From NCBI GenBank assembly GCA_965261435.1, contig CBDHDL010000021.1, positions 2,715,950 to 2,779,949 on the forward strand: a stretch of 64,000 bases of DNA, read 5' to 3'. Made by a program: the position numbers and the translations under genes. The notes beneath the pieces are model-generated. The model did not search any database and was not told the DNA's origin. It saw only the letters and a list, made by a program, of their open reading frames with translations. This document shows, piece after piece, positions 3,177 to 34,560 of the stretch (within the stretch, counting starts at the first letter, position 1; every line of letters begins with the position of its first letter). This DNA is from Candidatus Poribacteria bacterium (GTDB taxonomy: Bacteria; Poribacteria; WGA-4E; WGA-3G).

Positions 3177-4445
3177 GTGATTCAGAGAGGAATTCCAGTG
3201 ATTGAATTTGACCAATTGACAGTACCGACAACCGGTGAAATAATAGAATCTGTGAATGGACAACGGGTTGTTCCAAATAACCCGATCATTCCTGTCATTG
3301 AAGGGGACGGCATCGGACGAGACATAATGAAAACGACGCGCCGTGTCATTGATGCCGCTGTCCAGACCGCTTACGATGGAAAAAACAAAATCGTCTGGTT
3401 TGATGTCTATGCTGGCGAAAACGCCATGGACAAATACAACGAATGGCTCCCACAAGATACATTCAATGCAATTGAACATTTCAAAGTTGCCTTGAAAGGG
3501 CCGCTGACAACCCCCGTCGGTGGTGGTTTTCGTAGTTTGAATGTTACATTAAGACAAGTGCTTGAACTCTATGCTTGTGTGCGACCTGTTCGCTATTTCC
3601 AAGGTGTTCCTGCACCGGTTACACATCCTGAAAAGATGGATGTAGTTATCTTCCGAGAAAACACTGAAGATGTATATGCCGGAATTGAATGGGAACAAGG
3701 GACACCAGAAGTAAAAAAGGTTATTGAACTGCTTCGCACTGAAATGGGTGTGGAGATTCGCGAGGACTCCGGTATTGGTATAAAACCGATAAGCATCTTT
3801 GGTACGAAACGTCTGGCACGGATGGCTATCCAATACGCAATAGACCACAGCAGAAAAAGCGTTACCTTTGTTCATAAAGGGAATATCATGAAGTTTACTG
3901 AGGGTGCTTTCTGTGCTTGGGGATATGAACTCGCTAAAGAGGAATTTGCTGATACTACAATCACAGAAGCAGAACTCTATGATGAATACGACGGGAACGT
4001 TCCTGACGGTAAAATCATCATCAATGACCGGATCGCGGACAGCATGCTGCAGCAGATATTGACGCGAACCGATGAATACGATGTCATTGTCACACCAAAC
4101 TTGAACGGGGACTACCTCTCAGATGCTGCAGCAGCACAAGTCGGTGGAATCGGCATGGCACCAGGTGGTAATCTCAACGATGAGGTCGCACTTTTTGAAG
4201 CAACACACGGCACAGCACCAAAATACGCCGATCAAGATGTAGTCAATCCGAGTTCACTCATCCTCTCTGCAGTGATGATGTTAGAGCATATCGGTTGGCA
4301 AGAAGCCGCTGACTTGATTATCGCAGGACTTGAAAAGACTATTTTACAGAAACGGGTAACTTACGATCTGGAACGGTTGATGGCAGGTGCAACAAAAGTC
4401 CGCACATCTGAATACGGTGAAGCTATTATTGAAAACTTTTCGTAA
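3177..4445 (+). CDS. icd: NADP-dependent isocitrate dehydrogenase
   Basis: The ORF aligns by eye along its length to E. coli Icd ([65 protein letters not shown]). The likely true start is the GTG at 3198, after an AGAGGA RBS. Confidence 0.95.
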
Positions 4446-4528: not shown

Positions 4529-5455
4529 GTGGCAAGAAAAAAAATTAGTGTAATCGGCGCAGGTAACGTTGGCGCAACAGCAGCATTCCTAATCGCGCAG
4601 AAACAGCTTGGCGATGTTGTCATGATAGACATTGTGGATGGAGTCCCACAAGGTAAAGCATTAGATATGGCGGAAATGGGCCCAGTAGAACTGTTTGATG
4701 CATCAATTAGTGGTGATCTTGACTATTATGCAACAGCAGACTCAGATTTAGTGATTATCACATCTGGTTCCCCACGTAAACCTGGGATGACACGTGAAGA
4801 TCTATTACAAACAAATGCCAAAATCGTTGCAAGCGTCACAGAAAATGTAGTGAAGCATTCACCCGACACAATCATCATGATGCTCACCAATCCACTTGAT
4901 ATCATGACATATCATGCGTGGAAGGTATCAGGATTCCCTTCACACCGCGTTGTTGGTCAAGCAGGTGTCTTGGATTCCGCACGTTTCCGTTATTTTATCT
5001 CACTGGAACTTGGTGTATCAGTAGAAGATATTCATGCACTCGTCCTTGGAGGACACGGTGATACGATGGTACCATTACCGCGTTATACGACCGTCAACGG
5101 CATTCCAATTACACAGTTGATTACTAAGGAACATATTGAAGCAATGGCACAACGCACGCGAGATGGTGGTGCTGAGGTAGTCAATTATCTCAAGACAAGT
5201 GGATACTATGCCGCAGGGGCATCATTAGCACAGATGGCAGAAGCTATCATCTTGGATAAGAAACGTCTACTCCCCTGTTCTGCACATCTCACAGGACAAT
5301 ACGGTATCAACGATCTCTATATCGGTGTTCCGATTAAACTGGGGGCAAATGGCGTTGAAGAGATTATTGAGATTGAATTGGAAAATGATGAGTTAGATGC
5401 ATTGCAGACATCAGCACAGACCTATCGTGATGGGATTGCGTTGTTAGGATATTAG
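4529..5455 (+). CDS. mdh: malate dehydrogenase (LDH-like type)
   Basis: KISVIGAGNVGATAAF is a Rossmann motif, and the sequence has an LDH/MDH core (GGHGDTMVPL). A GTG start at 4529 follows a GGAGGAAG RBS (the ORF track begins at 4463). Confidence 0.9.
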   Translation: MARKKISVIGAGNVGATAAFLIAQKQLGDVVMIDIVDGVPQGKALDMAEMGPVELFDASISGDLDYYATADSDLVIITSGSPRKPGMTREDLLQTNAKIVASVTENVVKHSPDTIIMMLTNPLDIMTYHAWKVSGFPSHRVVGQAGVLDSARFRYFISLELGVSVEDIHALVLGGHGDTMVPLPRYTTVNGIPITQLITKEHIEAMAQRTRDGGAEVVNYLKTSGYYAAGASLAQMAEAIILDKKRLLPCSAHLTGQYGINDLYIGVPIKLGANGVEEIIEIELENDELDALQTSAQTYRDGIALLGY

Positions 5456-5513
5456 ATAAATTTACTTTTCTGATATCAATACCTTTGCCAATAATAGACA
5501 TTCTGTTAGGTTG

Positions 5514-5692
5514 CGCTCTTTGTCTTGGATTCTGTGTTTGTACCGCATTCTGTTAGATTGCGTTTCTTTGTAGCACATTCTGTTAGATTGTGCCTCTTTG
5601 TAGCACATTCATCCTTATTGGACATCTTTCTACTATCCCATGCATCCTTGATTGGGAATATTGGTAGCACAATCAAGGATGAATGTGCTACA
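5514..5692. repeat. tandem ~30 bp direct repeats (CATTCTGTTAGATTG..TCTTTGTAGCA, 3-4 copies) followed by a nested palindrome (GCACATTCATCCTT ... AAGGATGAATGTGC)
   Basis: Seen directly in the non-coding region downstream of mdh. Confidence 0.7.
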
Positions 5693-6400
5693 GAAGAATA
5701 AAACCAAAGACTATCTTGAAACTTTATTGTGCAGAATAACGCAATGCGTATATACCACCTGAGAACATCCTTAAATTGTCGCATAAGGTGCGGTTTCTTA
5801 ACCAATGCAGAATACCCAAACGCGTATTTTGCCGAATACAAAATATGATTTATCAAACTCACGTTTAATTAGCAATCTCCTCGTTCTTTAGCTGCAAGAG
5901 CACCTGTTGGTTGTGAAAAAAACATGCCCATCTATGTAACTGACCCAATCCCCTTCCGTGCCAACTATGCCAGCTATGCTAACTGGGCAGTGTTCTCCGT
6001 GCCAACTATATAACAGGCGCGCTTCTGACAGAAAAGATCAGAATTACAGAACCTTATTAACCTACTTCAAAACATGTTCAGGATGAAGCAGAGACGCAAA
6101 TGCACAAATATGTGCAGCAAATTAATAAGTAGCGGTTAAATGTCCAGATATGTGCAGCAATGCGTAAGTAAAATCCCTCCAGTGCAGGCACAAATATTGC
6201 ACGACTGTATAAAACACCTAATAGGAAACCGTATTATATTTGTATGTTCTCCGCGTGTTTTTTTCATAGTACTTCACATTTCACAGGTTTAACCCCTTAC
6301 GAGTGGGACGGCAGGTATGTTGCTTTGCATCAATACTCGTAATGTCTGTCACTGTGATACTATGTTTATACAACATTTCTTGGTATATGAAGTTTAAAAA

Positions 6401-6494
6401 ATCGTTAATTTGGCGAGGTTAGGAAACCTCGCCAGCAGGTTGGTGTATCGTTAATTTGGCGAGGTTAGGAAACCTCGCCAGCAGGTTGGTGTAT
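6401..6494. repeat. perfect 47 bp tandem duplication, each copy carrying the hairpin GGCGAGGTT-AGGA-AACCTCGCC
   Basis: The two units are identical at 6401-6447 and 6448-6494. A third copy of the hairpin and its downstream flank is at 34461-34560. Confidence 0.85.
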
Positions 6495-6616
6495 CTGCCT
6501 TATGCAAACAAGAAATTACCCAATTTACTATTTAATCTTCATTTGCCAAGAAAACAATATAGGAGGTGGGCATTCCTCCCAATGTTAAAGCATTGGGTCT
6601 CATGTCCATAGATTAG

Positions 6617-8122
6617 ATGAAACTTTTCACAATGTTATGTATCTGTTTCGCGTTGTTCATTGGGTGTGGATCTGATTCAGATGTTACGGATTCACCTGCG
6701 GATTCGATTGCGGTTAATCTCCCTAATTTGGATGACCTGAAAGTGCGCGAGCAGATCCTGGCGGAAGCATTATACGAGCATAACCTACAAACTCGTAACG
6801 CACCGTCAGGTGAAGCACTTTATTATGCCCCTAATCAGCAAGTACCATATACTGGATGGGTCAAAGGAACATCATACGGCGATGTTGTCCCTTTCTCACT
6901 CTGGCAGGTGCAGAACGGTAAAAGGCACGGTATCTATCTAAAATGGTACGGCAATCAACAAAACCGGGAGAAAGGGGTTTACAAAGATGGATCTAAAGAT
7001 GGAACGTGGACATACTGGGATGAGCACGGACAAAAAAGTGAAGGATCTTTCAAAGTCGGTGCTGAAAGTGGCTTGTGGACTTATTGGTATGACAACGGAC
7101 AGAAATGGAAAGAAGGTTCCTTCAAAGTCGGTGCTGAAAGTGGTTTGTGGACTTATTGGTATGAGAACGGACAGAAATGGAAAGAGGGTGCCTTCAAAGA
7201 TGGTGTTGAAAGTGGTTTGTGGACATACTGGAATCAGAACGGACAAAAATTTAGTAAAATCATAACCGGCGATTTTGTCAATAGCGTTGCATTCAGTCCG
7301 GATGGAAAAACACTCGCAAGTGGCAGTGAGGATTCTACTGTCCTTTTGTGGGATGTGGCAACAGGCACACATAAGCACACGCTTGAGGGGCATCTGGATT
7401 CTGTAAGAAGCATCGCATTCAGTCCGGATGGAAATACGCTCGCAAGTGGCAGCTGGGATGGGACTATTCGTCTGTGGGATTTGGCAACAGGCACACACAA
7501 ACACACGCTTGAGGGGCATCTGAGGTATGTCAAAAGTGTTGCATTCAGTCCGGATGGAAAAACCCTCACAAGTGGCAGTAGTCGTGATTCTATGATTCGT
7601 TTGTGGGATGTGGCAACAGGCACACACAAACACACGCTTGAGGGGCATCAGTGGTATGTCAATAGTGTCGCATTCAGTCCGGATGGAAAAACCCTCACAA
7701 GTGGCAGTGAGGATGATACTATTCGTCTGTGGGATGTGGCAACAGGCACACACAAACACACGCTTGAGGGGCATCTGGATTCTGTCAATAGCGTCGCATT
7801 CAGTCCGGATGGAAAAACCCTCGCAAGCGGCAGTGAGGATGATACTATTCGTCTGTGGGATGTGGCGACAGGCACACATAAACACACGCTTGAGGGGCAT
7901 CAGTGGTATGTCAATAGTGTCGCATTCAGTCCGGATGGAAATACGCTCGCAAGTGGCAGTTGGGATGGGGCTATTCGTCAGTGGGATGTGGCAACAGGCA
8001 CACACAAACACACGCTTTGGGGACATGTGTTTTTTGTCAATAGCGTCGCATTCAGTCCGGATGGAAAAACGCTCGCAAGTGGCAGTGTCGATCGGACCAT
8101 CAGTCTTTGGGATGTTCCTTGA
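6617..8122 (+). CDS. lipoprotein with N-terminal MORN-like repeats and about 7 C-terminal WD40 repeats
   Basis: The lipobox is FIGC. GLWTYWYxNGQKWKEGxFK recurs three times, and AFSPDGKTLASGSxDxTIRLWDVATGTHKHTLEGH recurs about seven times. The antisense ORFs here are repeat artefacts. Confidence 0.85.
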   Translation: MKLFTMLCICFALFIGCGSDSDVTDSPADSIAVNLPNLDDLKVREQILAEALYEHNLQTRNAPSGEALYYAPNQQVPYTGWVKGTSYGDVVPFSLWQVQNGKRHGIYLKWYGNQQNREKGVYKDGSKDGTWTYWDEHGQKSEGSFKVGAESGLWTYWYDNGQKWKEGSFKVGAESGLWTYWYENGQKWKEGAFKDGVESGLWTYWNQNGQKFSKIITGDFVNSVAFSPDGKTLASGSEDSTVLLWDVATGTHKHTLEGHLDSVRSIAFSPDGNTLASGSWDGTIRLWDLATGTHKHTLEGHLRYVKSVAFSPDGKTLTSGSSRDSMIRLWDVATGTHKHTLEGHQWYVNSVAFSPDGKTLTSGSEDDTIRLWDVATGTHKHTLEGHLDSVNSVAFSPDGKTLASGSEDDTIRLWDVATGTHKHTLEGHQWYVNSVAFSPDGNTLASGSWDGAIRQWDVATGTHKHTLWGHVFFVNSVAFSPDGKTLASGSVDRTISLWDVP

Positions 8123-8125
8123 TAC

Positions 8126-8192
8126 CAAGAAATTTGAGGCGCAAACATCCGCACAGACGTATCGTGGGGGAATTGCACTGCTGAGATATTAA
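8126..8192 (+). repeat. degenerate copy of the mdh 3' end (encodes ..AQTSAQTYRGGIALLRY*)
   Basis: About 78% nucleotide identity to 5395-5455 (mdh ..LQTSAQTYRDGIALLGY*). Confidence 0.75.
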
Positions 8193-8244
8193 AATAGTTT
8201 ACATCATATTGGGTTGCATTCAAAGTCAATGGAGAGTATAATTA

Positions 8245-8733
8245 TTGCATAGCGAAACACAAAAACGTATCTACATTGATACGTCAATTCCCAGTACTTA
8301 CTATACATTACGGACCGACGAGGGGTCTCTTGTGAGGCGGAGGGTAACGCGTAAATGGTGGAATAAATATTCAAATTTATTTAACCTCACGACAAGTCCT
8401 ACCGTTATTGAGGAACTTAGTGAAGGAACGGGCAAAAAAACACGGGACCGGATTGCTTTAATAGCAAACCTGGAAATATTGCCAATTACTACTGAGGTAC
8501 TCCAAATCGCGCAAATTTATATTGACAGATTGATAATGCCTCAAGATCCTTCTGGTGATGCGTTGCACTTGGCAATTGCCTCTTTTCACAATATGGACGA
8601 ACTTCTCACATGGAATCAATCTCATATTGCCAATGCCAACAAAATTTCTCTTATCCAGCAGATTAATCAAGACATAGGTTTAGCAACACCAGAATTAATA
8701 ACCCCACTGAATTACTTCGGAGATAATGCTTAA
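8245..8733 (+). CDS. PIN-domain protein, N-terminal part of a gene split by a +1 frameshift
   Basis: IYIDTS and DALHLAIASFHNMDELLTWNQSHI are PIN motifs. A TTG start follows a GGAGAG RBS. The gene is homologous to 40837..41568. Confidence 0.6.
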   Translation: MHSETQKRIYIDTSIPSTYYTLRTDEGSLVRRRVTRKWWNKYSNLFNLTTSPTVIEELSEGTGKKTRDRIALIANLEILPITTEVLQIAQIYIDRLIMPQDPSGDALHLAIASFHNMDELLTWNQSHIANANKISLIQQINQDIGLATPELITPLNYFGDNA

Positions 8734-8950
8734 AATGAGAGACAGAGAAATCATAGAAAATACCGAATGTGAAATAGTTAAGGAAGTTCGCGAAGTCCGG
8801 CACAAAATCTCTGCACGGTTTAACCACGATATCGGTCAATTGGTAGCACATTATCAAGAGATTCAAGAAAAGATGCGGGAGTCCGGCAAGTATAAGTTTG
8901 CTGACTTACCAAGTAAAAAGCCAAAACTCCCAGAATCTGATGAAGTTTAA
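8726..8950 (+). CDS. C-terminal part of the same PIN-family gene, in the +1 frame
   Basis: It aligns to the C-terminal 70 aa of the 40837..41415 product (..KISARF.., PSKK..PE.SD) and overlaps the previous ORF by 8 nt. Confidence 0.5.
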   Translation: MLKMRDREIIENTECEIVKEVREVRHKISARFNHDIGQLVAHYQEIQEKMRESGKYKFADLPSKKPKLPESDEV

Positions 8951-9063
8951 ATAAATGTATCGGTAAACCAATCACCAAAAACGTTCATACGGGTGGGGTT
9001 TCCCCGCCCGTATATTATACTCAATTAATAATTTAATCTTCATTAGATTCTGAGGTGGCAGAT

Positions 9064-9135
9064 TGAGACGATGAGTTGGGTACTTTGCAGACATCTGCCC
9101 AGACCTATCGTGAAGGGATTGCACTGTTGGGGTAC
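9064..9135 (+). repeat. second degenerate copy of the mdh 3' end (..LQTSAQTYREGIALLGYY*)
   Basis: About 82% nucleotide identity to 5386-5455. Confidence 0.75.
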
Positions 9136-9162
9136 TATTGATGGGAGGTTAGAATATTCTGA

Positions 9163-10077: not shown

Positions 10078-11241
10078 CTACTCAGCCTGCCGAAATATTT
10101 TATCAATAAAAGACGGAAGGAAATAATCCAATTCCTGCATTGTCTTGACCTGAAGGTCCTTAATGTCGTTTATCTTTTCTTGAAAATCATTTAAGTGTGC
10201 AACGATGCTATGCTGTTCTTCAAGTGATGGAATTGGTACCATAACAGATGCCAGTTTCGTTGCGTTGCAATTCGGTTGGGCACTACCAATTGTGTTTTCC
10301 GAGATTTGTTCCCAGTAATTAGGGGACTGAAAAAAAGCATAGAGATACTGTGGGGAAATCATTTTATTAACACGAAGACGGATCAGATATGATGCAAATA
10401 CTGCAGTCGGACATTCTTCAACGAGGAAACTTTTACCGGTCGTAGCTCCGGTACGTGCAAATAATATGTCGTCCTTCTCAAGAAGATATTTTTCAAGTTT
10501 CGGACAATCACAATAAGGCACCGTTTCCCAGTTGACTGAACCCTCTTGAATATCTGTAATACGAAGTAAATGAGGACCAATTTGTTCAGTTGTCGCAGAA
10601 GCAGTATACCCATACTGTGGTTTTTCACACAACTCACTGACGCTTTTAACCTTCCAGTCTTTACGTAGTTTCAAAATATCACGATAGACTGAACTAACGA
10701 AAACAGATAATTCATTTTCTAATTGTTGACGTAGCAAGCGCACCTCATTGATTTTTGTGAGAAAGTGATTGATTTTCTCTACAATATGACGTTGTTCTGA
10801 TAGGGAAGGTAGTTTGACTGATATTGGCAAAAGTTGTTTAGGTTTCAATTCAGATTTGATTCCACCAGGCAAGGTTCGAAACAGAATATGCTGAAATGCT
10901 TTACTCCTAAATAACCACCACAAAAATGTTGTGTCAGCTCGTTCTGGATTGACAAAGTATGCGCTGTAGTGCATAGTAGCTGAACCTAGTTTTTCTGAAT
11001 CATCTGGGTATATAGCAATTGCTCCTTTAGCAGCATTAATTCCAGACAAAACTATGTCTCCGGGTTGAAACTGTATCATTTTGGTTTTTGTAGTAGTACT
11101 GTCTCGAAATTCCATCTCACCTGTATTGAAACCGATCTTGGAGACGATACGAATTTCACCTGTTTCTAATGAAACAGGATCCGGGGTCTCTTTACGCTCT
11201 ACAAGTACTTCATCAAGTCGAACCTCTTCCCATTTTACCAT
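10078..11241 (-). CDS. hsdS: Type I restriction-modification specificity subunit
   Basis: It has two target recognition domains separated by conserved repeats (LPSLSEQRHIVEKIN ; IPSLEEQHSIVAHLN), and lies immediately downstream of hsdM. Confidence 0.85.
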   Translation of the reverse strand: MVKWEEVRLDEVLVERKETPDPVSLETGEIRIVSKIGFNTGEMEFRDSTTTKTKMIQFQPGDIVLSGINAAKGAIAIYPDDSEKLGSATMHYSAYFVNPERADTTFLWWLFRSKAFQHILFRTLPGGIKSELKPKQLLPISVKLPSLSEQRHIVEKINHFLTKINEVRLLRQQLENELSVFVSSVYRDILKLRKDWKVKSVSELCEKPQYGYTASATTEQIGPHLLRITDIQEGSVNWETVPYCDCPKLEKYLLEKDDILFARTGATTGKSFLVEECPTAVFASYLIRLRVNKMISPQYLYAFFQSPNYWEQISENTIGSAQPNCNATKLASVMVPIPSLEEQHSIVAHLNDFQEKINDIKDLQVKTMQELDYFLPSFIDKIFRQAE

Positions 11242-11242
11242 C

Positions 11243-12880
11243 TTAATATTCGCCTCCTAAAGATTCTGCTTGGATTTCCCTTATCAACTCCAGAATTCTT
11301 TGTTCCTTATGGATAATACTATCAGCAATTTCCTCAGGAGGCAGATGCACTAAAGTTTCCGCGCTGTTTGGGTTCTTGATATCTAAATCCGCTGCGACAA
11401 CCTTCTCCTCTTCATCATATTTTAAGACATCCTCAATGTCAATCTTCCACGCATACTCATTTTCTTGTCGTTCTGAAATCGGATGGAACCACTCAATACA
11501 GTCTGAAAATTCCTCAAATCTCATAGGTTTTGTCTTCGTATAGTTTTTTCGACCTTCAGGAAGCGGAATCTCATAGAACCATATTTCCTTGGTCGGATGG
11601 GAACGGTCGAAAAAGAGTAGGTTCGTTGGAATGCCGGTATATGGTGCGAAAACCCCTTTCGGCAATCGAACAATCGTATGAAGATTGAAGTTCTTAAGCA
11701 GTTCTTCCTTAATACGTGCACAGACTCCATCTTCAAAAAGTGTTCCGTTTGGTACAACAACAGCAGCACGTCCCGGCTTCCCTTTATTGCGTTCCGGACG
11801 TTTGAGTCTTCGCATGATAATCTGGAGGAATAGCAGCGCGGTTTCTGAAGTTTGCATGTTGGTTGGGAAATAGTCTTTGACGCTTTTCTCTTCTTCACCA
11901 CCAAAGGGTGGATTGGTAAGAATAACATCGTATCGGTCATTGTCGCCAATTTCGTTAAACCTTTTGACGGTGAGAGAGTTTTTAAAGTCAATCTGTGGGT
12001 TTTCCAATCCATGCAAAAGGAGATTCATCTGGCATAGAAGGTAAGGGATCGGTTTCGCTTCTATTCCGTAGATAGTAGCTTCTTGAAGCGTTTGCCGGTC
12101 AGCAATGGTTTGGCACTGTTTTTCAAGGTGGGTAAATGCCTCAACAAGAAAACCGCCGGTGCCGCTGGCAGGATCAAGCACAGTTTCACCGAGTTGAAGA
12201 TCCGTTACCGCAACGATAAAATTGACAACAGGTCGGGGTGTGTAAATTTCACCAGAGTCCCCTACGGCATCGCGCATTTCCCGAAGCATCGTTTCATAAA
12301 AACGGCTAAGCGTATGCATTTCCTCGGATGCATCAAAATGGATACTGTTGACTTTGTTAACTATATCTCTGAGTAGCCAACCAGATTGTATCCGATTAAT
12401 GATTCCTCTGAAAACAGTTGCAATGACATCTTCACGACCCTTCCCATCTGCAGATCGAAGGCTACGTAAATAGTGAAAAAGCCCTTGGCCTTTAGTGCCA
12501 TCTGGAAGATTTGCCTCTTCAAGATTGATAAAGTTTATCAGATCTTCCCCCGTGATGCCGCCTTCATCTGCTGCCCAATCTCTCCAGCGGTACGGCTCAT
12601 TAATAAGTGGGTGAAAATCTTTGCCTGCAAGTTCAGCTTCCGATTCCCGGATATGTTCCATGTCATCAATGAATTTGAGAAACATAATCCAAGTTAGCAT
12701 CGGAATTCGGTCTAACTCACCGCTAAGTCCTTTGTCCTTACGCATAATGTCGCGGGCAGATTTGATAAGCGTGTTCAACTCCTGCGCCGTTGTTTGCGAG
12801 TTTTCTAATTTCTCTAATAGGTGCAACTGTTTGTGGTTTTGTGTCATATCATTCCTCTCTTTGTATATATTATGCCTCAT
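11243..12880 (-). CDS. hsdM: Type I R-M N6-adenine DNA methyltransferase
   Basis: It has an HsdM N-terminal domain, FxGxG (DPASGTGGFL), and NPPFGG. The start may instead be the ATG at 12847. Confidence 0.9.
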   Translation of the reverse strand: MRHNIYKERNDMTQNHKQLHLLEKLENSQTTAQELNTLIKSARDIMRKDKGLSGELDRIPMLTWIMFLKFIDDMEHIRESEAELAGKDFHPLINEPYRWRDWAADEGGITGEDLINFINLEEANLPDGTKGQGLFHYLRSLRSADGKGREDVIATVFRGIINRIQSGWLLRDIVNKVNSIHFDASEEMHTLSRFYETMLREMRDAVGDSGEIYTPRPVVNFIVAVTDLQLGETVLDPASGTGGFLVEAFTHLEKQCQTIADRQTLQEATIYGIEAKPIPYLLCQMNLLLHGLENPQIDFKNSLTVKRFNEIGDNDRYDVILTNPPFGGEEEKSVKDYFPTNMQTSETALLFLQIIMRRLKRPERNKGKPGRAAVVVPNGTLFEDGVCARIKEELLKNFNLHTIVRLPKGVFAPYTGIPTNLLFFDRSHPTKEIWFYEIPLPEGRKNYTKTKPMRFEEFSDCIEWFHPISERQENEYAWKIDIEDVLKYDEEEKVVAADLDIKNPNSAETLVHLPPEEIADSIIHKEQRILELIREIQAESLGGEY

Positions 12881-15200
12881 AAATCAACTTCTGAAGTTCT
12901 GCAACAGCATTTCGTAGTTGCTCTGCCCCTTTGAATACTTTTAAGATTTCACGAATATTGCCAAACTCAGAAATAGGTGGAACGTTTAAAGCATCAGGGA
13001 TTTTCAGTTCGTCGGGGCCGTGTTGACTATATTTATCAAGCAAAATCCCAAGTACATACTGGCCAATAACGTCGTACTGTTTAAAAAAATCTGTATTGTC
13101 TTCTTGGACTCGTTCCGCTCGTTGTTTTCTTGTCTGGAGGGGAGCCCCGAAAGCGACATGGCAAAACAGATCAATTGAATCAAAGGTGTCACCATCTGGG
13201 AGTTGTAATTCTTTCACTAACTGTTCTCTTTCAATACCGAATTGTCCCAATTCGTCAATAGTTTCACTGCGTGATTGTTGGTCTATCCACTTTTCACGCA
13301 GTTTAGATTCAAATTCGTAAAGCGTATAGATTTTATCACTTACATATTCTATGTATGTTTTATGTTGCTGACTTCCATCAGGATTCAGGATAATAACTCC
13401 GTCTTCAGCAATCGTCACTGTCCCTTCATCAACATAGAACTTTTGCCCCTTTGACGGTTGAACAGAAGTGCGTTTTCCTCTACCTTTGTTTTGTTGACGA
13501 TCAGTATCTGTTTCTATAACTTCTTCATCTTCGTCTATCGGCTCGCCATCAAAATCAGGGTCTGCAAAATGTTTAAACGACGCTCCTGTGTAATCAATAA
13601 TATTAAAAGTGAATTTGTCATATTCCTCACAGACACGAGTCCCTCTACCAATCATCTGCTTAAATTCAACCATTGAACCAACACCGCGTGCAATAGCAAT
13701 ATTTTTCACTGTTGGAGCATCAACACCAGTAGTGAGGAGCTTAGAAGTAGTCACAATGATAACAGAATCATCCTCAATATCTTGGAATCGACTGAGACGT
13801 TCACGACCATATTCGCCTTCGTCGGCGGTTATACGACTTACATAATCGGGATATCTTTGGACATGCTCAGCGTTTAGATTAGAGAGGATTTCTCGCATGG
13901 TGCCTGCATGCTCTTGGTCAACACAAAAAACAATAGTTTTGGCGTACGGATCAGATTCCAATAAACCTGTCAAATGTTTTGCAATTGCTTCCGTACGCGG
14001 TCTTAAAGCAAGTGTATTTTCAAAGTCTTCAGTGTTGTACTGCTTATCAGGTATTATTTTACCATGTCGATCAGTTTGTCCTGGATCAGGTTGCCAACCC
14101 TCTGCATCTGCTGTAGTTAAGACGTGTCGAACACGATAAGGGGCAAGGAACCCATCTTCAATACCCTGTTTAAGTGTGTAGGTATAGACAGGATTTCCAA
14201 AATATTGATAGGTGTTCCGAGTCTCTTCGTGAAGAGGTGTAGCAGTCATACCGAGTTGCACTGCTGGTTCAAAGTATTCCAGAACTACCCTCCATTGACT
14301 ATCATCTTGAGCAGAGCCGCGGTGACACTCATCCACAATAATAAGATCAAAGAAATCCTTTGCGTATTCGCGATAGATACCAGGATTATCCTCTCTGGGA
14401 CCGATAGATTGATAAAGCGCGAAATAGATACCTCGGCTTTTGACAACTTCACCTTGTTCTATCCGATGTCGTGCCTCTCCAAAAGCTGCAAAGTCTTTAT
14501 TCATTGGATCATCCACAAGGATTTTCCTATCGGACAGGTAAAGAATTTTGGGAAGACGCGGGTCTGTTTTGAGATTCCAACGTTGTTGCCAAAGTTTCCA
14601 ACAAATTTGAAATGCAGTGGTGGTTTTTCCTGTTCCAGTTGCCATTGTCAAAAGAATTCGTCTTTGATCTTTTACAATGGCCGAAATAACATTACTTATC
14701 GCAATTTGTTGATAGTACCTGGGGATTTTACCGCCAGTAAGGTCGAACGGTGAAAGAATAATATCTTCCTGTTGTGTAGTAAAACCTTCATGTGTTTTTA
14801 GGCGTTGCCAAAGTTCCGCTGGTTGAGGCATTTCGTAGAATTTAGACTCTACACCTGTTAAAAAATCAAACTCCACAAATAGTTCACCATTTGTAGAGTA
14901 CGCAAATTTAAGCCCTAACATTTGCGCGTAAGTTTTCGCTTGTTGGAGGCCATCAGCTGGCAATTTGCAATCTGCTTTTGCCTCAACAACAGCAATCGGA
15001 AAATGGGGTTGCCGGTAGTAGAGGATATAATCGGCACGTCTTGCTTTACCGCGTATTCCTTCACCTTTTATTTTCCCATCTGTGAAATGATGCTCACGGA
15101 CAAAAGATGGTACTTCTGGATTGTTTGAATCGTCCCAACCGGCATCTTTCAGCAGAGGATCAATGTTTCTGGTCCGCGTTTCAGCTTCATTCATAGTCAA
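12870..15200 (-). CDS. hsdR: Type I restriction enzyme R subunit
   Basis: The N-terminus is HsdR_N (EAETRTRNIDPLLKDAGW). It has Walker A MATGTGKTTTA, DEAH-like IVDECHRGS, and helicase motif VI QMIGRGTR. Confidence 0.85.
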   Translation of the reverse strand: MTMNEAETRTRNIDPLLKDAGWDDSNNPEVPSFVREHHFTDGKIKGEGIRGKARRADYILYYRQPHFPIAVVEAKADCKLPADGLQQAKTYAQMLGLKFAYSTNGELFVEFDFLTGVESKFYEMPQPAELWQRLKTHEGFTTQQEDIILSPFDLTGGKIPRYYQQIAISNVISAIVKDQRRILLTMATGTGKTTTAFQICWKLWQQRWNLKTDPRLPKILYLSDRKILVDDPMNKDFAAFGEARHRIEQGEVVKSRGIYFALYQSIGPREDNPGIYREYAKDFFDLIIVDECHRGSAQDDSQWRVVLEYFEPAVQLGMTATPLHEETRNTYQYFGNPVYTYTLKQGIEDGFLAPYRVRHVLTTADAEGWQPDPGQTDRHGKIIPDKQYNTEDFENTLALRPRTEAIAKHLTGLLESDPYAKTIVFCVDQEHAGTMREILSNLNAEHVQRYPDYVSRITADEGEYGRERLSRFQDIEDDSVIIVTTSKLLTTGVDAPTVKNIAIARGVGSMVEFKQMIGRGTRVCEEYDKFTFNIIDYTGASFKHFADPDFDGEPIDEDEEVIETDTDRQQNKGRGKRTSVQPSKGQKFYVDEGTVTIAEDGVIILNPDGSQQHKTYIEYVSDKIYTLYEFESKLREKWIDQQSRSETIDELGQFGIEREQLVKELQLPDGDTFDSIDLFCHVAFGAPLQTRKQRAERVQEDNTDFFKQYDVIGQYVLGILLDKYSQHGPDELKIPDALNVPPISEFGNIREILKVFKGAEQLRNAVAELQKLIYEA

Positions 15201-15238: not shown

Positions 15239-15532
15239 CTATGACTTTTTACGGGATGATGATTTCAGGATATTTCCTAAAGGATCCATAACACCAATCG
15301 TTGTGTCTTTGTAGTGCTCTAAAGCTGCCTGAGTGGCTGCATCGTCTGCTCCCGCTACGTAGACAGGACGTCTATATCCCCGAAGTTGATCGGCTGCATC
15401 TTTTATGGTATCAGATGTTTCAACCTCAATGACTTGACGCTTTGTATTGATATCTGGACCTTGTCCTTTATTATATGAAGCACCTTTATTCTCAGCAATT
15501 TGTTCTGCGGTTTTGTCATGTTTAGTAGCCAT
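15239..15532 (-). CDS. hypothetical protein
   Basis: The ORF is protein-like (..RGYRRPVYVAGADDAATQAALEHY..) with no recognised motif. Confidence 0.4.
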   Translation of the reverse strand: MATKHDKTAEQIAENKGASYNKGQGPDINTKRQVIEVETSDTIKDAADQLRGYRRPVYVAGADDAATQAALEHYKDTTIGVMDPLGNILKSSSRKKS

Positions 15533-15609
15533 TATTTTTCTCCTTGTAATTATTTGTTCGTTGTAGGTTTGTGATCAAAAACATTATTTCTATGATGTTG
15601 AATGCTATA

Positions 15610-15915
15610 TCACACCTTCTGTGCTACCATACTGGAAAGGATACCGAGAAGCCTATCACACCGCTCAATCGTATAGGTTGACATATCAAGCTGCAATCGG
15701 TTTTCTTGCAAGTTGAGGAATAGCCACTCAACCCCTGTTGTGCTAACACCATAGATCAAAGGGATGTCATTTCCTTTCTCGGTATAAAAACGTTGGGCAG
15801 CAAGCATATCTGCAACACATTACCCAATTCCAAGTTTTAAGTCAAGGTTTTTTGCCTCAACGACAACAATGATTGGTGCTTCTAAATAGAACTGTTCAGG
15901 TGACAGAAACGACAT
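15610..15915 (-). pseudogene. 3' fragment of the PD-(D/E)xK paralog family with an in-frame TAA (CAA to TAA) at 15820-15822
   Basis: Translation MSFLSPEQFYLEAPIIVVVEAKNLDLKLGIG*CVADMLAAQRF..ILGILSSMVAQKV aligns to residues ~97-201 of the 201 aa paralogs. There is no homology upstream of 15915. Confidence 0.7.
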
Positions 15916-16119
15916 TAAGAGTTTTCACTTGCAAATCCTACCTTTTTCGTGTATCCTATACTTTGGTTTGTTGGTCGGGAATGTCATCCGCGTCGCATGG
16001 CGCGGTCCCTACCGAAACGAATGACATCGGGAGCAATACTAAGGTTAAACAGTGCGATCCAATAAACAAAACAGAACATAATATCCAAATAGTGAAAGGA
16101 TTGATTTACAATCAAGGAG

Positions 16120-16449
16120 ATGTTTAAGATGGTCATTAACGGGGAAGGAATGATAACTTATTATATCTATAATAAACTGTTCGATGAAACCTATACCGCC
16201 TATATCCAAAAAAATGGAGAGAATTGGCACGGTACAATTGCGGAACTTCCCGAAATAGAACATACTGCGGAGACTGCCGAAGCTGTACAAGAAAAATTAC
16301 CAGATATGCTGCAGCAAACCCTAATTGCGAAAGAAGAAGCTTGGGATCTGCAGATCAAAGAGGATATGAAAGCGGGTCGACTTGATCATCTTATTGAGAA
16401 GGCTCTTGAAAATTATAGGACAGGTAAATGTTCTAAGATAGTTCCATAG
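16120..16449 (+). CDS. type II antitoxin (HicB-like/UPF0150-like N-terminal half) partnered with a RelE/ParE toxin
   Basis: YTAYIQKNGENWHGTIAELPEIEHTAETAEAVQE resembles HicB-family antitoxins. The gene abuts the toxin gene (stop 16449, toxin start 16451). Confidence 0.55.
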   Translation: MFKMVINGEGMITYYIYNKLFDETYTAYIQKNGENWHGTIAELPEIEHTAETAEAVQEKLPDMLQQTLIAKEEAWDLQIKEDMKAGRLDHLIEKALENYRTGKCSKIVP

Positions 16450-16450
16450 C

Positions 16451-16717
16451 ATGAACATTTCTCAATTTGAACACATACAAGATCAAGATTTCATAAATTT
16501 GGTAGCAAGACTTCCTCAAGCCTTGCAGAATCGTGTTGCCAGGCAATTCCAAGTCCTACAAGAAAACCCTTTATATCCATCTCTTCATTTCAAAAAAGTC
16601 TCTGATCTTTGGTCATTACGTATTACTGACAATTACAGAGCTTTAGGACAAGAAGAAAATGGGAAGATCATTTGGTTTTGGATCGGAAAACATGACGAAT
16701 ATGAGAGGCGGATCTGA
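16451..16717 (+). CDS. type II toxin, RelE/ParE superfamily
   Basis: 88 aa. YPSLHFKKVSDLWSLRITDNYRALGQEENGKIIWFWIGKHDEY matches the RelE/ParE core pattern. Confidence 0.75.
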   Translation: MNISQFEHIQDQDFINLVARLPQALQNRVARQFQVLQENPLYPSLHFKKVSDLWSLRITDNYRALGQEENGKIIWFWIGKHDEYERRI

Positions 16718-16830
16718 CTATCTCTCCTTATGGTGTGGCATCTCCATGAAATAAAATATCAAGAATTGCCTCTTCAAGATAAATTAAACCGATATGTTCT
16801 TGTTGTTTAGGCTTCATTTTTCACCTCTTC

Positions 16831-17070
16831 CTACGTGTCGTCTAAACGTTTTTGATCTTCATCTTGGTATAAACGCCAACCAATTCTGCTTCCACTGGTT
16901 GAGACCTCTGGTTGCACTCGAAAATCACTCTCAAGTTTATAAAGAATAGCACCTATTAGATGTCCAGCCCAGTTGTTGGGATCGTCCTTTTTTCCCGGCA
17001 ATTCTAATCGTGCTTTAATATCGTTTATGCTCATATACGCCTCATCTGGTGCTGGGAGAGTGTCTAACAA
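16831..17070 (-). CDS. hypothetical small protein
   Basis: ORF only. It uses a TTG start and its frame stays open upstream. Confidence 0.25.
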   Translation of the reverse strand: MLDTLPAPDEAYMSINDIKARLELPGKKDDPNNWAGHLIGAILYKLESDFRVQPEVSTSGSRIGWRLYQDEDQKRLDDT

Positions 17071-17312
17071 AGTTTCTTCTAATAATTGTATTCCTGCTTT
17101 TGCAGTAAGTATGGGCTTGTCAGGATTTTTACCAAGATAGTTGATATTACATATATATATACATTGGTCTCATCAGGCGTTATTGTAATAGTTTCTACAT
17201 TTGCATTCTGTCTTGACATATTATATCTCCTTTTATCTTGGAATTGTCATTAGCTAATTTACTTATTGTCATTAGCTATTTTACTTAAAGTCTGAATAAA
17301 TCATTCGAAAAA

Positions 17313-17652
17313 CGACATCCTTACATGGACTTTCTTATAAAGGGGTATATCTACTTCATCAGAACTATATTCAATAAAGTCCCTTTTATGTTCATCACTC
17401 CACTGCATTCCCTCATCACGAGGTTTTACCAACTCGATATTGTGATTTTTGTAGTCGTATCCATGGTAATCTTTAATGTTGTGAAAAATGTTCCATGCAA
17501 TTGTCTCTGCTTCACGTCTACTAATTCGACGTTGGAAGTTAGGTGGTCCCTCTGTATAACTCGGATATTCTATTGAGATTTCAAAGCAAGGCGGGTTAGT
17601 TTCCTTTAGAATAATAGCAAGATTAAATTCACTATTAGCATCTATATGCCAT
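17313..17652 (-). pseudogene. fifth, disrupted member of the PD-(D/E)xK paralog family with a divergent 3' part
   Basis: ATG GCA TAT (MAY) at 17652-17644 is followed by a 10 nt insertion (AGATGCTAAT) that gives MAYRC*. In the shifted frame, SEFNLAIILKE..FEISIEYPS resembles the paralog N-termini (SEFTLEIVQK..FSEIEPVEPS), then it diverges to the stop at 17313. Confidence 0.5.
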
Positions 17653-17701
17653 GTGACAGTTTCTCCAAGTAGTACGTTAAAACTATGGACTATTTATAAT
17701 C

Positions 17702-18307
17702 TTATACCTTTTGTGCCACCATACTGGAAAGGATACCGAGAATCCTATCACACCGCTCAATTGTATAAGGTGTCATATCAATATGCAAACACTTTCCTTG
17801 CAACTTCAGAAATATCCACTGAACTCCTGTTGTACTTGCTCCATAAACAGTAGAAATGTCATTACCTCTATCAGCATTGAAACGTTGGACTGCGATCATC
17901 TCTGCAACACACTGTCCAAGTCCAAGTTTTAAATCGTGATTTTTTGCCTGGACAAGCGCGATAATCGGTGCATCCAAATAAAATTGTTCAGGTGACAGAC
18001 TCACTAAAAAATCACACACGCCGGTCAAACCTTTTTCAGCATCAACGCTGAAGTCAATACCAGAAAACAGACTAATGCTGTGATCAAAGTGCTCAAGAAG
18101 GTCAACGAGCACGGCAACAACTATCATTTCTGACCTTGCTTTCTCGGTACCGATAGCGGTGGCTAATGATGCCTTTCGCGCTAATCCCATCGTGAGATAT
18201 GTGCTTGGCTCCACTGGTTCTATTTCAGAGAAGAGACCTAAAGACCGAACCGTATTGAGTTGAAACGTTTTCTGCACAATTTCTAAGGTAAACTCACTAT
18301 ACGCCAT
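17702..18307 (-). CDS. PD-(D/E)xK-motif protein, paralog 3 (variant QAK in place of EAK)
   Basis: 201 aa, with GVCDFLVSLSP ... IIALVQAKN. About 55-60% identical to its neighbours. Confidence 0.7.
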   Translation of the reverse strand: MAYSEFTLEIVQKTFQLNTVRSLGLFSEIEPVEPSTYLTMGLARKASLATAIGTEKARSEMIVVAVLVDLLEHFDHSISLFSGIDFSVDAEKGLTGVCDFLVSLSPEQFYLDAPIIALVQAKNHDLKLGLGQCVAEMIAVQRFNADRGNDISTVYGASTTGVQWIFLKLQGKCLHIDMTPYTIERCDRILGILSSMVAQKV

Positions 18308-18356
18308 GTGAGAATTTCTCCATGCAGTACGTTAAGACAATAACTATTGTATAACC

Positions 18357-18962
18357 TTACGCCTTTTGTGTCACCATACTGGAGAAGATGCCGAGGATCC
18401 TATCACACTGAGCGATTTGGTAGGTTGACATATCAAGCTGCAAGCACTTTCCTTCTAACTTCAGGAATAACCAATCAACTCCTGTTGTAGACGCACCATA
18501 AACACAAGAAATTTCATTCCCTTTTTCGATATTAAAACGTTGTGCGGCGAGCATCTCTGCGGCACATTGTCCAAGTCCAAGTTTCAAGTCGAGATTTTTT
18601 GCCTCAACAAGCGCGATGACAGGTGCTTCTACATAAGATTGTCGAGGCGACAGGCTTATCAGGAAATCACACACACCCGTTAATCCGTTTTCAGCGTCAA
18701 CGTTGAAGTCAATGCCAGAAAATAGACTAATTTTGCGATCAAATCTTTCACGGAGTTCAACGAGAACATTAGAAACAATCAGTTCTGATCGTGCTTTCTC
18801 AGTGTTTATAGTAGTGGCTAAGGGTACATTTCTTGCTAATATATTTGTGAGTTCTGCACTGAGTTCCATCGGTTCTATTTCAGAAAAGATGCAGGCGTGT
18901 TCAACAAAATCAAGTTCAAATTCTTTTTCCACTGTCTCCAGCGTAAAATTGCTATAAGCCAT
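18357..18962 (-). CDS. PD-(D/E)xK-motif protein, paralog 2
   Basis: 201 aa, with GVCDFLISLSP ... VIALVEAKNLD (D..ExK). Confidence 0.7.
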   Translation of the reverse strand: MAYSNFTLETVEKEFELDFVEHACIFSEIEPMELSAELTNILARNVPLATTINTEKARSELIVSNVLVELRERFDRKISLFSGIDFNVDAENGLTGVCDFLISLSPRQSYVEAPVIALVEAKNLDLKLGLGQCAAEMLAAQRFNIEKGNEISCVYGASTTGVDWLFLKLEGKCLQLDMSTYQIAQCDRILGIFSSMVTQKA

Positions 18963-18992
18963 ATCTGTACCTCCTGGTTCCTCTAACTCCTC

Positions 18993-19598
18993 TTATACCT
19001 TTTGTGCTACCATACTGGAGAGGATACCGAGAATCCTATCACACCGCTCAATCGTGTAGATTACCATATCAATATGAAGACGGTTCCCTTCCAATTTAAG
19101 AAATTTCCAGTCTGTCCCTGAAGTGGTGGCACCATAAAAACACTGGATATCATTTCCTTTTTCGGCATTAAAACGTTGTGCTGCGATCATCTCCGCGACA
19201 CACTGTCCAAGTCCGATGAGAAGGTCATCTTTTTTCGCCTCAACCACGATAATAACGGGTGCCTCCAAAAGAGATTGCCGCGGGGACAAACTCACTAAGA
19301 AATCACACACCCCGGTTAATCCGTTTTCAGAATCAACGTTGAAGTCAATGCCAGAAAAAAGGCTGATACTACGATCAAAGTGCTCAAGGAGGTCAACGAG
19401 CACATCAGCAACGATCATTTCTGACTTTGCCTTCTCTGTGCCTATTGTCGCAGCTAAGGGAGCTTTTCTTGCCAAAGCTGTCACGAGATGTGCGGTCGGA
19501 TCAACCGCCTCTATTTCAGAAAAGAGTCCTACAGTATCAACTGCTTCAAGCTGAAATGCTGGCAGCACCGACTCTAAGGTCCATTCGCTATAAGACAT
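18993..19598 (-). CDS. PD-(D/E)xK-motif protein, paralog 1
   Basis: 201 aa, with GVCDFLVSLSP ... VIIVVEAKKDD. Confidence 0.7.
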   Translation of the reverse strand: MSYSEWTLESVLPAFQLEAVDTVGLFSEIEAVDPTAHLVTALARKAPLAATIGTEKAKSEMIVADVLVDLLEHFDRSISLFSGIDFNVDSENGLTGVCDFLVSLSPRQSLLEAPVIIVVEAKKDDLLIGLGQCVAEMIAAQRFNAEKGNDIQCFYGATTSGTDWKFLKLEGNRLHIDMVIYTIERCDRILGILSSMVAQKV

Positions 19599-34431: not shown

Positions 34432-34460
34432 TTTTCACGTTATGAAGTTTAAAAAAAATA

Positions 34461-34560
34461 TTTAGGTAATTTGGCGAGGTTAGGAAACCTCGCCAGCAGC
34501 GTGGTGTGCCTGCCTTATGCAAACAAGAAATTACTCAATTTATTATTTGATCTTCATTTA
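34461..34560. repeat. copy of the GGCGAGGTT-AGGA-AACCTCGCC hairpin element plus its conserved downstream flank
   Basis: About 85% identical to 6448-6550. It sits between the LamG gene stop and the phosphohexomutase gene start. Confidence 0.8.

Follow-up and report, generated by a model that had tools for sequence, protein, structure and literature searches.

Insertion of mobile DNA into the 3′ end of a gene has been described in several systems. In the account given in PMC13626634 with reference to Hill et al. 1989, e14 and phage 21 recombine inside the 3′ end of Escherichia coli icd and supply a mostly synonymous substitute end; the icdC fragment is left at the far side, and excision rejoins the ends. 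Cis-mobilizable elements (CIMEs), as outlined in PMC5704250 and in Pavlovic et al. 2004 cited there for the ICESt1 family at fda and for tandems of integrative and mobilizable elements (IMEs) and integrative and conjugative elements (ICEs), lack an integrase, keep attL and attR and are stacked by repeated integration, with internal att copies. In the tycheposon islands of Prochlorococcus, later arrivals at one site push older ones deeper and leave scattered partial target copies (10.1101/2020.12.28.424599). Here we report on a 64,000-nucleotide (nt) stretch of a Poribacteria genome (the window) in which the 3′ end of the malate dehydrogenase gene mdh recurs twice downstream of the gene, each time at the border of a small cassette. 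This cassette array is probably the left part of a hypervariable toxin–antitoxin (TA) and defence island that lies between mdh and dnaK in Poribacteria, with the 3′ end of mdh as its point of entry.

The locus resembles e14/icd in that the target is the 3′ end of a tricarboxylic acid cycle gene, direct tail repeats mark the borders, the mdh frame is intact and relatives have empty sites. However, e14 is a single-copy prophage of 15 kb that encodes its integrase, whereas here integrase-less segments of 0.3–2.7 kb are stacked two to three deep, at mdh. Integrase-less segments bounded by tail copies in tandem at one gene end are also typical of CIME accretion, but CIMEs are decayed ICEs or IMEs beside an integrase-encoding relative, whereas no helper was seen in any of the Poribacteria loci and the cassettes there have the appearance of single-operon modules, not of large elements in decay. 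With tycheposon islands the locus shares defence or niche cargo and an uncultured-type marine lineage, although tycheposons target transfer RNA or tmRNA genes and carry tyrosine recombinases or their remnants; in the present locus the end of a protein-coding gene is the target, and recombinase remnants are absent. The small, mostly single-operon, promoter-poor cassettes, each ending in a recombination unit, with proximal entry, permutable order, TA cassettes and open reading frames (ORFs) ending inside the unit, are reminiscent of integron arrays. In contrast to integrons, there is no intI in the window or the loci, the proximal site is the mdh end, an attC-like hairpin is lacking (z about 0) and the units are homologous to the end of a housekeeping gene whose frame each event must preserve. 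The closest matches are therefore e14 and phage 21 for the fate of the gene, CIMEs and tycheposons for the stacking, and integrons for cassette size, entry and order; with neither an integrase beside the att site nor an attC-like hairpin, the locus falls outside any single integrase-bearing family. The principle of gene-end integration and accretion is thus already known, and what is unusual is the integrase-less mini-cassettes, their permuted orders, the coding-like displaced ends and the setting in an uncultured sponge symbiont.

The end of mdh was searched against the whole window using blastn and tblastn, together with repeat finding and a tail profile (nhmmer). The upstream part of the window encodes icd (3177–4445) and, after a spacer of 84 nt, a complete mdh ORF with 90–95% amino acid (aa) identity to other Poribacteria mdh genes, a gene that puts the window in Candidatus Poribacteria. 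Blastn returned two displaced copies, T3 (9070–9137, 82.4% identity over 68 nt, E 7e-15) and T2 (8141–8202, 75.8% over 62 nt, E 3e-7), and no further copy in the 64 kb, the next-best match having an E-value of 0.075. This was confirmed by tblastn, which gave DDELGTLQTSAQTYREGIALLGY at 9067–9135 and QTSAQTYRGGIALLRY at 8142–8189, by repeat finding, in which the working end (T1), T2 and T3 formed a three-member family, and by the tail profile, with E-values of 4e-21 and 6e-10 for the displaced copies. The extra mdh tails are real and far beyond chance; their coordinates and identities are close to those of a preliminary description of this DNA, which had also rightly placed the first copy directly behind a WD40 lipoprotein gene (stop codon 8120–8122). 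The second copy, said there to follow a PIN-domain gene, instead follows a gene of a 74-aa family (8735–8950) and an insertion resembling a miniature inverted-repeat transposable element (MITE; 8940–9043). The features are listed in Table 1, where the borders of the units were set by reading against relatives.

Table 1. Features of the mdh–dnaK region in the window (positions in nt).
Feature	Position	Strand	Remarks
mdh (malate dehydrogenase), anchor gene	4529–5455	+	308 aa; Pfam Ldh_1_N, Ldh_1_C
Tail unit T1, working mdh end	5378–5467	+	last ~25 codons, TAG stop, ~12 nt of shared flank
Window-only non-coding stretch	5456–5770		30-nt direct repeats 5537–5596; hairpin 5599–5692
WD40 cassette	5771–8118	+	non-coding leader (MITE 6387–6542 inside) and lipoprotein gene 6617–8122
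Tail unit T2 (first displaced copy)	8119–8202	+	first TGA is the stop of the WD40 gene
PIN-domain (VapC-like) gene	8245–8733	+	intact, 162 aa; Pfam PIN
74-aa-family gene (71 aa here)	8735–8950	+	3′ end replaced by MITE insertion
MITE-like insertion, ~105 nt	8940–9043		separates 74-aa gene from T3
74-aa gene-end remnant (9046–9066) and tail unit T3 (second displaced copy, 9061–9138)	9046–9138	+	stop mutated to TAT
HNH-like ORF, 293 aa	9163–10044	+	abuts T3; HNH_5 match below curated cut-off
Type I restriction–modification genes hsdS, hsdM, hsdR	10078–15200	-	orthologues in L005, L013, L091, L093
Rest of island up to dnaK	15239–19598		small ORFs, ParE-like toxin gene, three 201-aa paralogues, fragment
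ParE-like toxin gene	16451–16717		preceded by 109-aa ORF 16120–16449
Three tandem 201-aa PD-(D/E)xK paralogues adjoining dnaK	17702–19598		fragment at 15610–15807

For comparison, 44 mdh loci of Poribacteria relatives (L-numbers) with 10-kb flanks were used, to which about a dozen were added later, giving about 55 loci; the DNA of the relatives was read within 10 kb on either side of mdh. In the cross-genome alignment the unit, 80–90 nt long, starts about 78 nt ahead of the mdh stop and ends some 10 nt past it. Every displaced unit has the same variant left end, GATTGA(GAC or TGC)G(A or G)TGAG, whose mdh counterpart is GAATTGACAGATGATGAG and whose initial GATTGA is a variant of GAATTGA in mdh. 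The 74-aa gene takes its stop codon from the TGA of this motif, and the reading frame of the final cassette gene thus runs into the tail unit; in L095, however, the unit behind a different cassette (A) bears the variant left end though it has no 74-aa gene upstream. It is worth noting that the same position in the unit holds the TGA stops of two unrelated genes, those of the WD40 gene (8120–8122) and of the 74-aa gene before the MITE insertion (9064–9066).

The shared variant left end speaks against the native tail having been duplicated afresh in each event, and a long target-site duplication made anew per insertion was ruled out since the displaced units carry this variant rather than the mdh sequence. 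It is what a Campbell-type crossover predicts, with the distal copy composed of the left part of the cassette unit and the right part of the resident one. In addition, the last 24 nt and the TAG of the working tail are identical in the window, L005 and L091, all WD40-bearing, and different in other relatives, so that the end of the working gene travels with the cassette. The sequence around TATCGTGA, some 30 nt ahead of the stop, is a candidate for the crossover core. An attC or dif-like site was considered and rejected, as there was no hairpin and no palindromic core was seen by eye. DNA folding of the three units on both strands gave z-scores of −0.23 to +0.49, none of them unusual; an Rfam scan of the units returned no credible match, and the units contained no conserved synonymous positions.

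Among the related loci the number of extra tail units per locus is 0, 1 or 2. The basic order, as in L003 and L009, is mdh, one or more 201-aa PD-(D/E)xK genes and dnaK on the opposite strand, without an extra unit; L017 also has none. With T denoting a tail unit, the other arrangements were T-(368-aa ORF)-T in L001, T-74-T in L096 (the 74-aa gene starting 24 nt past the mdh stop), T-PIN-74-T in L015 and L008 and, in the other major clade, L081, T-A-f74-T in L007 (A being a small HicB-like cassette and f74 a 3′ fragment of the 74-aa gene), T-A-T-PIN-74-T in L095, T-PIN-74-T-A-f74-T′ in L004 (one clear extra unit and a decayed third, nhmmer E 3.8) and T-WD40-T-(PIN)-74-T in the window, L005, L093 and L094. 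Two extra units stand in the arrays of the window, L005, L093 and L095. The WD40 cassette is common to L005, L091, L093 and L094 at 84–91% nt identity and is absent from L004.

Besides L003, L009 and L017, which are empty, L007 is without the PIN-74 cassette that L004 has, and L004 is without WD40. Moreover, the flank of the L004_T2 unit is that of mdh in L002 and L007, and the flanks of L001_c1 and L007_c1 are that of mdh in L003. The displaced units therefore keep the native post-stop flank of cassette-less relatives, as expected of true insertions with matching empty sites. Cassettes A and PIN-74 occur alone, together and in both orders (L095 and L004 being permuted), and four or more cargoes (PIN-74, A, WD40 and the 368-aa ORF of L001) are found at the one unit, whereas no tail duplication of the neighbouring genes icd and dnaK was found in any locus. 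Inserts have thus genuinely been gained and lost at the mdh tail, a pattern due neither to chance nor to a fixed old duplication, and the comparison of relatives proposed in the preliminary description shows segments that vary and are permuted rather than a syntenic region with three fixed copies. A single ancient duplication of the mdh end, inherited vertically and followed by deletions, hits by insertion sequences (ISs) and MITEs and decay in place, with the copies as static relics, could account for the presence of the order PIN-74-tail in both major clades, those of the window and of L081. It is contradicted by the permuted order of L095 and L004 and by the second, independent unit behind cassette A, WD40 and the ORF of L001.

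The age of the island was examined through synonymous divergence (pS), with pN/pS as the measure of selection. Between the window and relatives, pS was 0.47–0.55 for the core genes icd, mdh and dnaK, compared with 0.24–0.28 for the WD40 N-terminus, 0.30 for the 74-aa gene, 0.31–0.39 for PIN and 0.36–0.38 for hsdM and hsdS (against L005); where WD40 and hsdM (0.36) were set beside icd, mdh and dnaK, these three gave 0.50–0.55. In the same genome pairs PIN showed 0.21–0.39 and mdh 0.47–0.63; for L004 and L008 specifically, the values were 0.21 and 0.50. Synonymous divergence of the island genes is about half that of the flanking core genes and, by this sequence measure, the island is evidently younger than its flanks, which speaks against an ancient duplication. 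The lower divergence extends to the restriction–modification genes, in line with the earlier suggestion that they belong to the same history of exchange. The WD40 cassette is patchily distributed over the mdh tree: the window, L005 and L091 have it, but L004, placed among them, does not. Together, the low island pS and this patchy distribution show that cassettes moved between lineages after the lineages had split.

The two displaced copies differ in their substitution patterns. T2 clusters with L005_c1 and L091_c1, its next nearest neighbour being the working tail of L004, and the variable sites among these three WD40-linked copies are distributed 2/2/5 over the codon positions, in agreement with neutral decay (nine sites, too few to test). 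T2 looks like a relic that has been decaying since one WD40 insertion, as the ancient-duplication explanation would also have it for these copies. The nearest neighbours of T3 are the working tails of L002, L004 and L008, with six synonymous differences and one non-synonymous difference to L008. Over 51 nt, T3 has 5–6 differences, almost only synonymous, from working mdh tails and T2 has 9–10, so that the more distal copy is the less decayed, which does not fit the staircase of progressively older copies that had been proposed. Across genomes, the units linked to the 74-aa gene show differences of 6/1/14 by codon position (P 0.002) and a pN/pS of about 0.1, each is nearest to the working tails of other genomes, and they carry the mdh residues of their own clade, LQTSAQ for that of the window and LQHSAA for that of L081. 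This coding-like pattern excludes a single old non-coding relic; the 74-linked units must be former working mdh ends that were displaced repeatedly and independently, or else were refreshed by conversion. With island pS below core pS as well, a single ancient duplication is very improbable.

A coding-like pattern could also arise if the displaced tails were kept for use, either as a C-terminal extension reached by stop read-through or frameshifting or as a DNA or RNA signal, and the unit does continue the frame of the 74-aa gene past its TGA in the window, L004, L005, L095 and L096. However, the frame differs in L015 (by +2 nt) and in L081 (another frame), and read-through translation was ruled out on this ground. 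The MITE between the 74-aa gene and the unit in the window, the frameshifts, 15-nt deletion or internal stops in some units (L005_c2, L007_c1 and L008_c1) and the lack of an Rfam match or structure signal also oppose such a function, which is hardly credible. The 15-nt internal deletion between two CAGAC repeats is common to three displaced units (L007 ~11600–11655, L008 11718–11754 and L008 16981–17024); in L008 the two units follow two copies of the 74-aa gene, a sign of segmental duplication within that island.

A scheme can be proposed in which a cassette would enter as a circle with one unit, by a Campbell-type crossover with the unit that currently finishes mdh. The mdh reading frame would be restored by partly cassette-borne codons and the former mdh end pushed downstream as a non-coding copy, and recombination unit by unit would take cassettes out again. 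In the history of the window as reconstructed from relatives, mdh-T followed directly by the island would have been the starting point; the PIN-74 cassette would have entered first, the then-working end becoming T3 (9061–9138), and the WD40 cassette would have followed at the new working end, giving T2 (8119–8202) and a partly cassette-borne T1. The MITEs would have arrived later at 6387–6542 and 8940–9043, the second clipping the last codons of the 74-aa gene, and the 315-nt window-only stretch (5456–5770) would have been added behind the mdh stop. This stretch is absent from L005 and L091, where sequence matching 5771 onward begins directly after the mdh stop.

Recombinases were sought by Pfam scans of 10 island ORFs and 20 others (about 150–550 aa) of the window, of 20 island ORFs from relatives and of 10 ORFs lying downstream in L011, L016 and L020, and by phmmer over all ORFs of at least 70 aa from the window and 44 loci, the latter being a weak test with unvalidated XerD, lambda Int and gamma-delta resolvase seeds. 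Several results weigh against insertion of cassettes at mdh as read here. In the cassettes and the Pfam-scanned window ORFs there was no tyrosine, serine or DDE recombinase tied to the units, which accords with the preliminary finding that the segments carry no integrase, and the Pfam-scanned or pre-annotated genes of the relatives within 10 kb of mdh were likewise without a recombinase, most loci being covered only by the weak phmmer scan. The enzymes met in these scans were ordinary IS transposases (later passengers), metabolic genes and defence genes. A degenerate tail pattern had no match in viral contigs and one in metagenome contigs, an L008-like mdh locus, so that no free attP was seen. 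L005 and L091 are 94–100% identical over mdh, the WD40 cassette and T2 but lose their similarity within the 74-aa gene, past which they are unrelated, with pS jumping from 0.10 in mdh to 0.38 in the 74-aa gene; this loss of synteny indicates a plain homologous-recombination breakpoint that is not at a unit. With units of about 80 nt, moreover, crossover points and unit phylogeny are poorly resolved. As to current activity, no cassette polymorphism was found within a species, L081–L090 being identical bar one IS, and the events are therefore old (pS at least 0.2). Exact-protein look-ups with the mdh, WD40 and 74-aa proteins of the window yielded no further strains of its species.

The earlier proposal of site-specific insertion at mdh thus holds for the insertion, given the empty sites in L003, L007 and L004, but its site-specificity is only a possible reading, as no recombinase was found and homologous recombination reshuffles the island. 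An alternative with the same anatomy is that homologous recombination between the direct-repeat units builds, permutes and erodes the array with RecA and no dedicated recombinase, by unequal crossover between alleles, by looping-out of circles and their re-entry after DNA uptake or by flank-to-flank replacement. The lack of a recombinase nearby, the L005/L091 breakpoint inside the 74-aa gene and the units' lack of special secondary structure and of conserved synonymous positions agree with it, and unequal crossover of single-cassette alleles can give both cassette orders. Yet units of about 80 nt that are 75–90% identical are a poor RecA substrate, at least four cargoes entered exactly at this unit while icd and dnaK tails have no copies, and the variant left end, constant throughout, points to a defined site carried along with the cassettes; we regard RecA as a possible, though doubtful, sole engine.

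As the cassettes carry no recombinase gene, a dedicated enzyme would have to act in trans. We lean slightly towards such a trans-acting site-specific recombinase, encoded elsewhere in the genome, over RecA, since the units are short and 10–25% diverged, at least four cargoes lie at exactly this unit and neighbouring gene ends show nothing similar; the data here nevertheless do not tell a trans-acting enzyme from RecA-type recombination between units. In its most far-reaching form, the locus would be an integron-like system with a new type of site, in which integrase-less cassettes of 0.3–2.7 kb with a mimic of the mdh end of about 85 nt are shuffled by a trans-acting, possibly undescribed enzyme. 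Any unit might then become the mdh C-terminus, selection would keep the non-coding units translatable and the 74-aa protein may be a site-marking accessory factor. We consider this full proposal unlikely.

Poribacteria are uncultured sponge symbionts, and the locus offers a datable record of a defence and TA island growing cassette by cassette at one address within a core gene of metabolism. Should a dedicated enzyme be at work, it would constitute a means of cassette capture separate from integrons, in which the end of a protein-coding gene serves as the recombination site; if RecA acts alone, gene-end repeats of about 80 nt can organize an island. In either case, the tail unit is a sequence tag with which to find the island and its cargo in any Poribacteria assembly.

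One cassette combines the PIN gene with the 74-aa gene, which form a module with an 8-nt overlap and a pN/pS of 0.1–0.2. The Pfam match of PIN is just over the cut-off (24.6 vs 23.6 bits). Its orthologues in L004, L008, L015 and L081 are 162 aa long and collinear with a pN/pS of 0.1–0.2, and the databases hold a 162-aa protein identical to it (P0121), with relatives named VapC family toxin. Rather than the frameshifted pseudogene reported initially, PIN is, as judged from these alignments, evidently a working gene under purifying selection. The 74-aa family has 154 homologues with 70–100% identity, all from Poribacteria, and its gene lay downstream of mdh in every context examined, also without PIN (L096, L010 and L013); it is the most frequent gene directly before a displaced unit. 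The protein has invariant residues Cys12, His31 and His39 and was modeled by AlphaFold2 as a helical hairpin (pLDDT 75). Pfam, NCBIfam and PADLOC gave no known domain in it, and no structural match to the model was found. The protein may be the antitoxin partner of PIN, although in this pairing the partner is encoded downstream of the PIN gene and has no known antitoxin domain. A role as excisionase was considered and dropped in view of the plain helical hairpin, the lack of a structural match and the absence of Pfam, NCBIfam and PADLOC matches.

The WD40 lipoprotein consists of a tandem-repeat N-terminal region and seven WD40 repeats (Pfam WD40, E 7e-89). Upstream of its cassette, the hairpin at 5599–5692 has a perfect 18-nt stem (5599–5616 and 5675–5692), short pieces of which recur inverted in L005 and L091. 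The MITE-like family has copies at 6387–6542, 8940–9043 and 34442–34557 of the window, with terminal inverted repeats ATGAAGTTTAAA and TTTAATCTTCAT and an internal GC hairpin, GGCGAGGTTAGGAAACCTCGCC, a motif that recurs in many Poribacteria loci. In the first of these copies a 46-nt core is duplicated in tandem; the second has no counterpart at the same spot in L004, L005, L015, L095 and L096.

Beyond the array, the island between mdh and dnaK is very variable in relatives and contains type I restriction–modification genes, a DUF2779/Cas4-like nuclease, TIR proteins, TA genes and IS elements. The 293-aa ORF of the window starts 25 nt after T3 and has CxxC...H...CxxC motifs; in L008 a fragment of it is found at the same place and a full copy further on. 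Several relatives have, directly after the 74-aa gene (and the tail unit if present), where the window has this HNH-like ORF, a gene for a DUF2779-type protein of about 500 aa with Cas4-like and RNase H-fold features (L005 13573–15069, L008 16972–18525, L013 11323–12798 and L026 11655–13148). The hsd orthologues of L005, L013, L091 and L093 carry N6_Mtase, Methylase_S, ResIII and EcoEI_R_C domains. The 201-aa genes and dnaK form a conserved right flank, with one to three 201-aa copies beside dnaK in most relatives. In the window, these paralogues match the PADLOC model PDLC01472 (PD-(D/E)xK, listed as CRISPR-associated) with an E-value of 4e-46, and 15610–15807 is a C-terminal fragment of such a paralogue, 2 kb from the tandem trio. 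A second variable spot in relatives is the icd–mdh spacer (L091 4872–6626, L093 5512–6927, L094 4678–7494 and L095 2420–7045), in which these four loci carry an ORF of 373–382 aa with a second PIN gene, an N6_N4 methyltransferase with a 363-aa partner, or both, without duplication of the icd tail.

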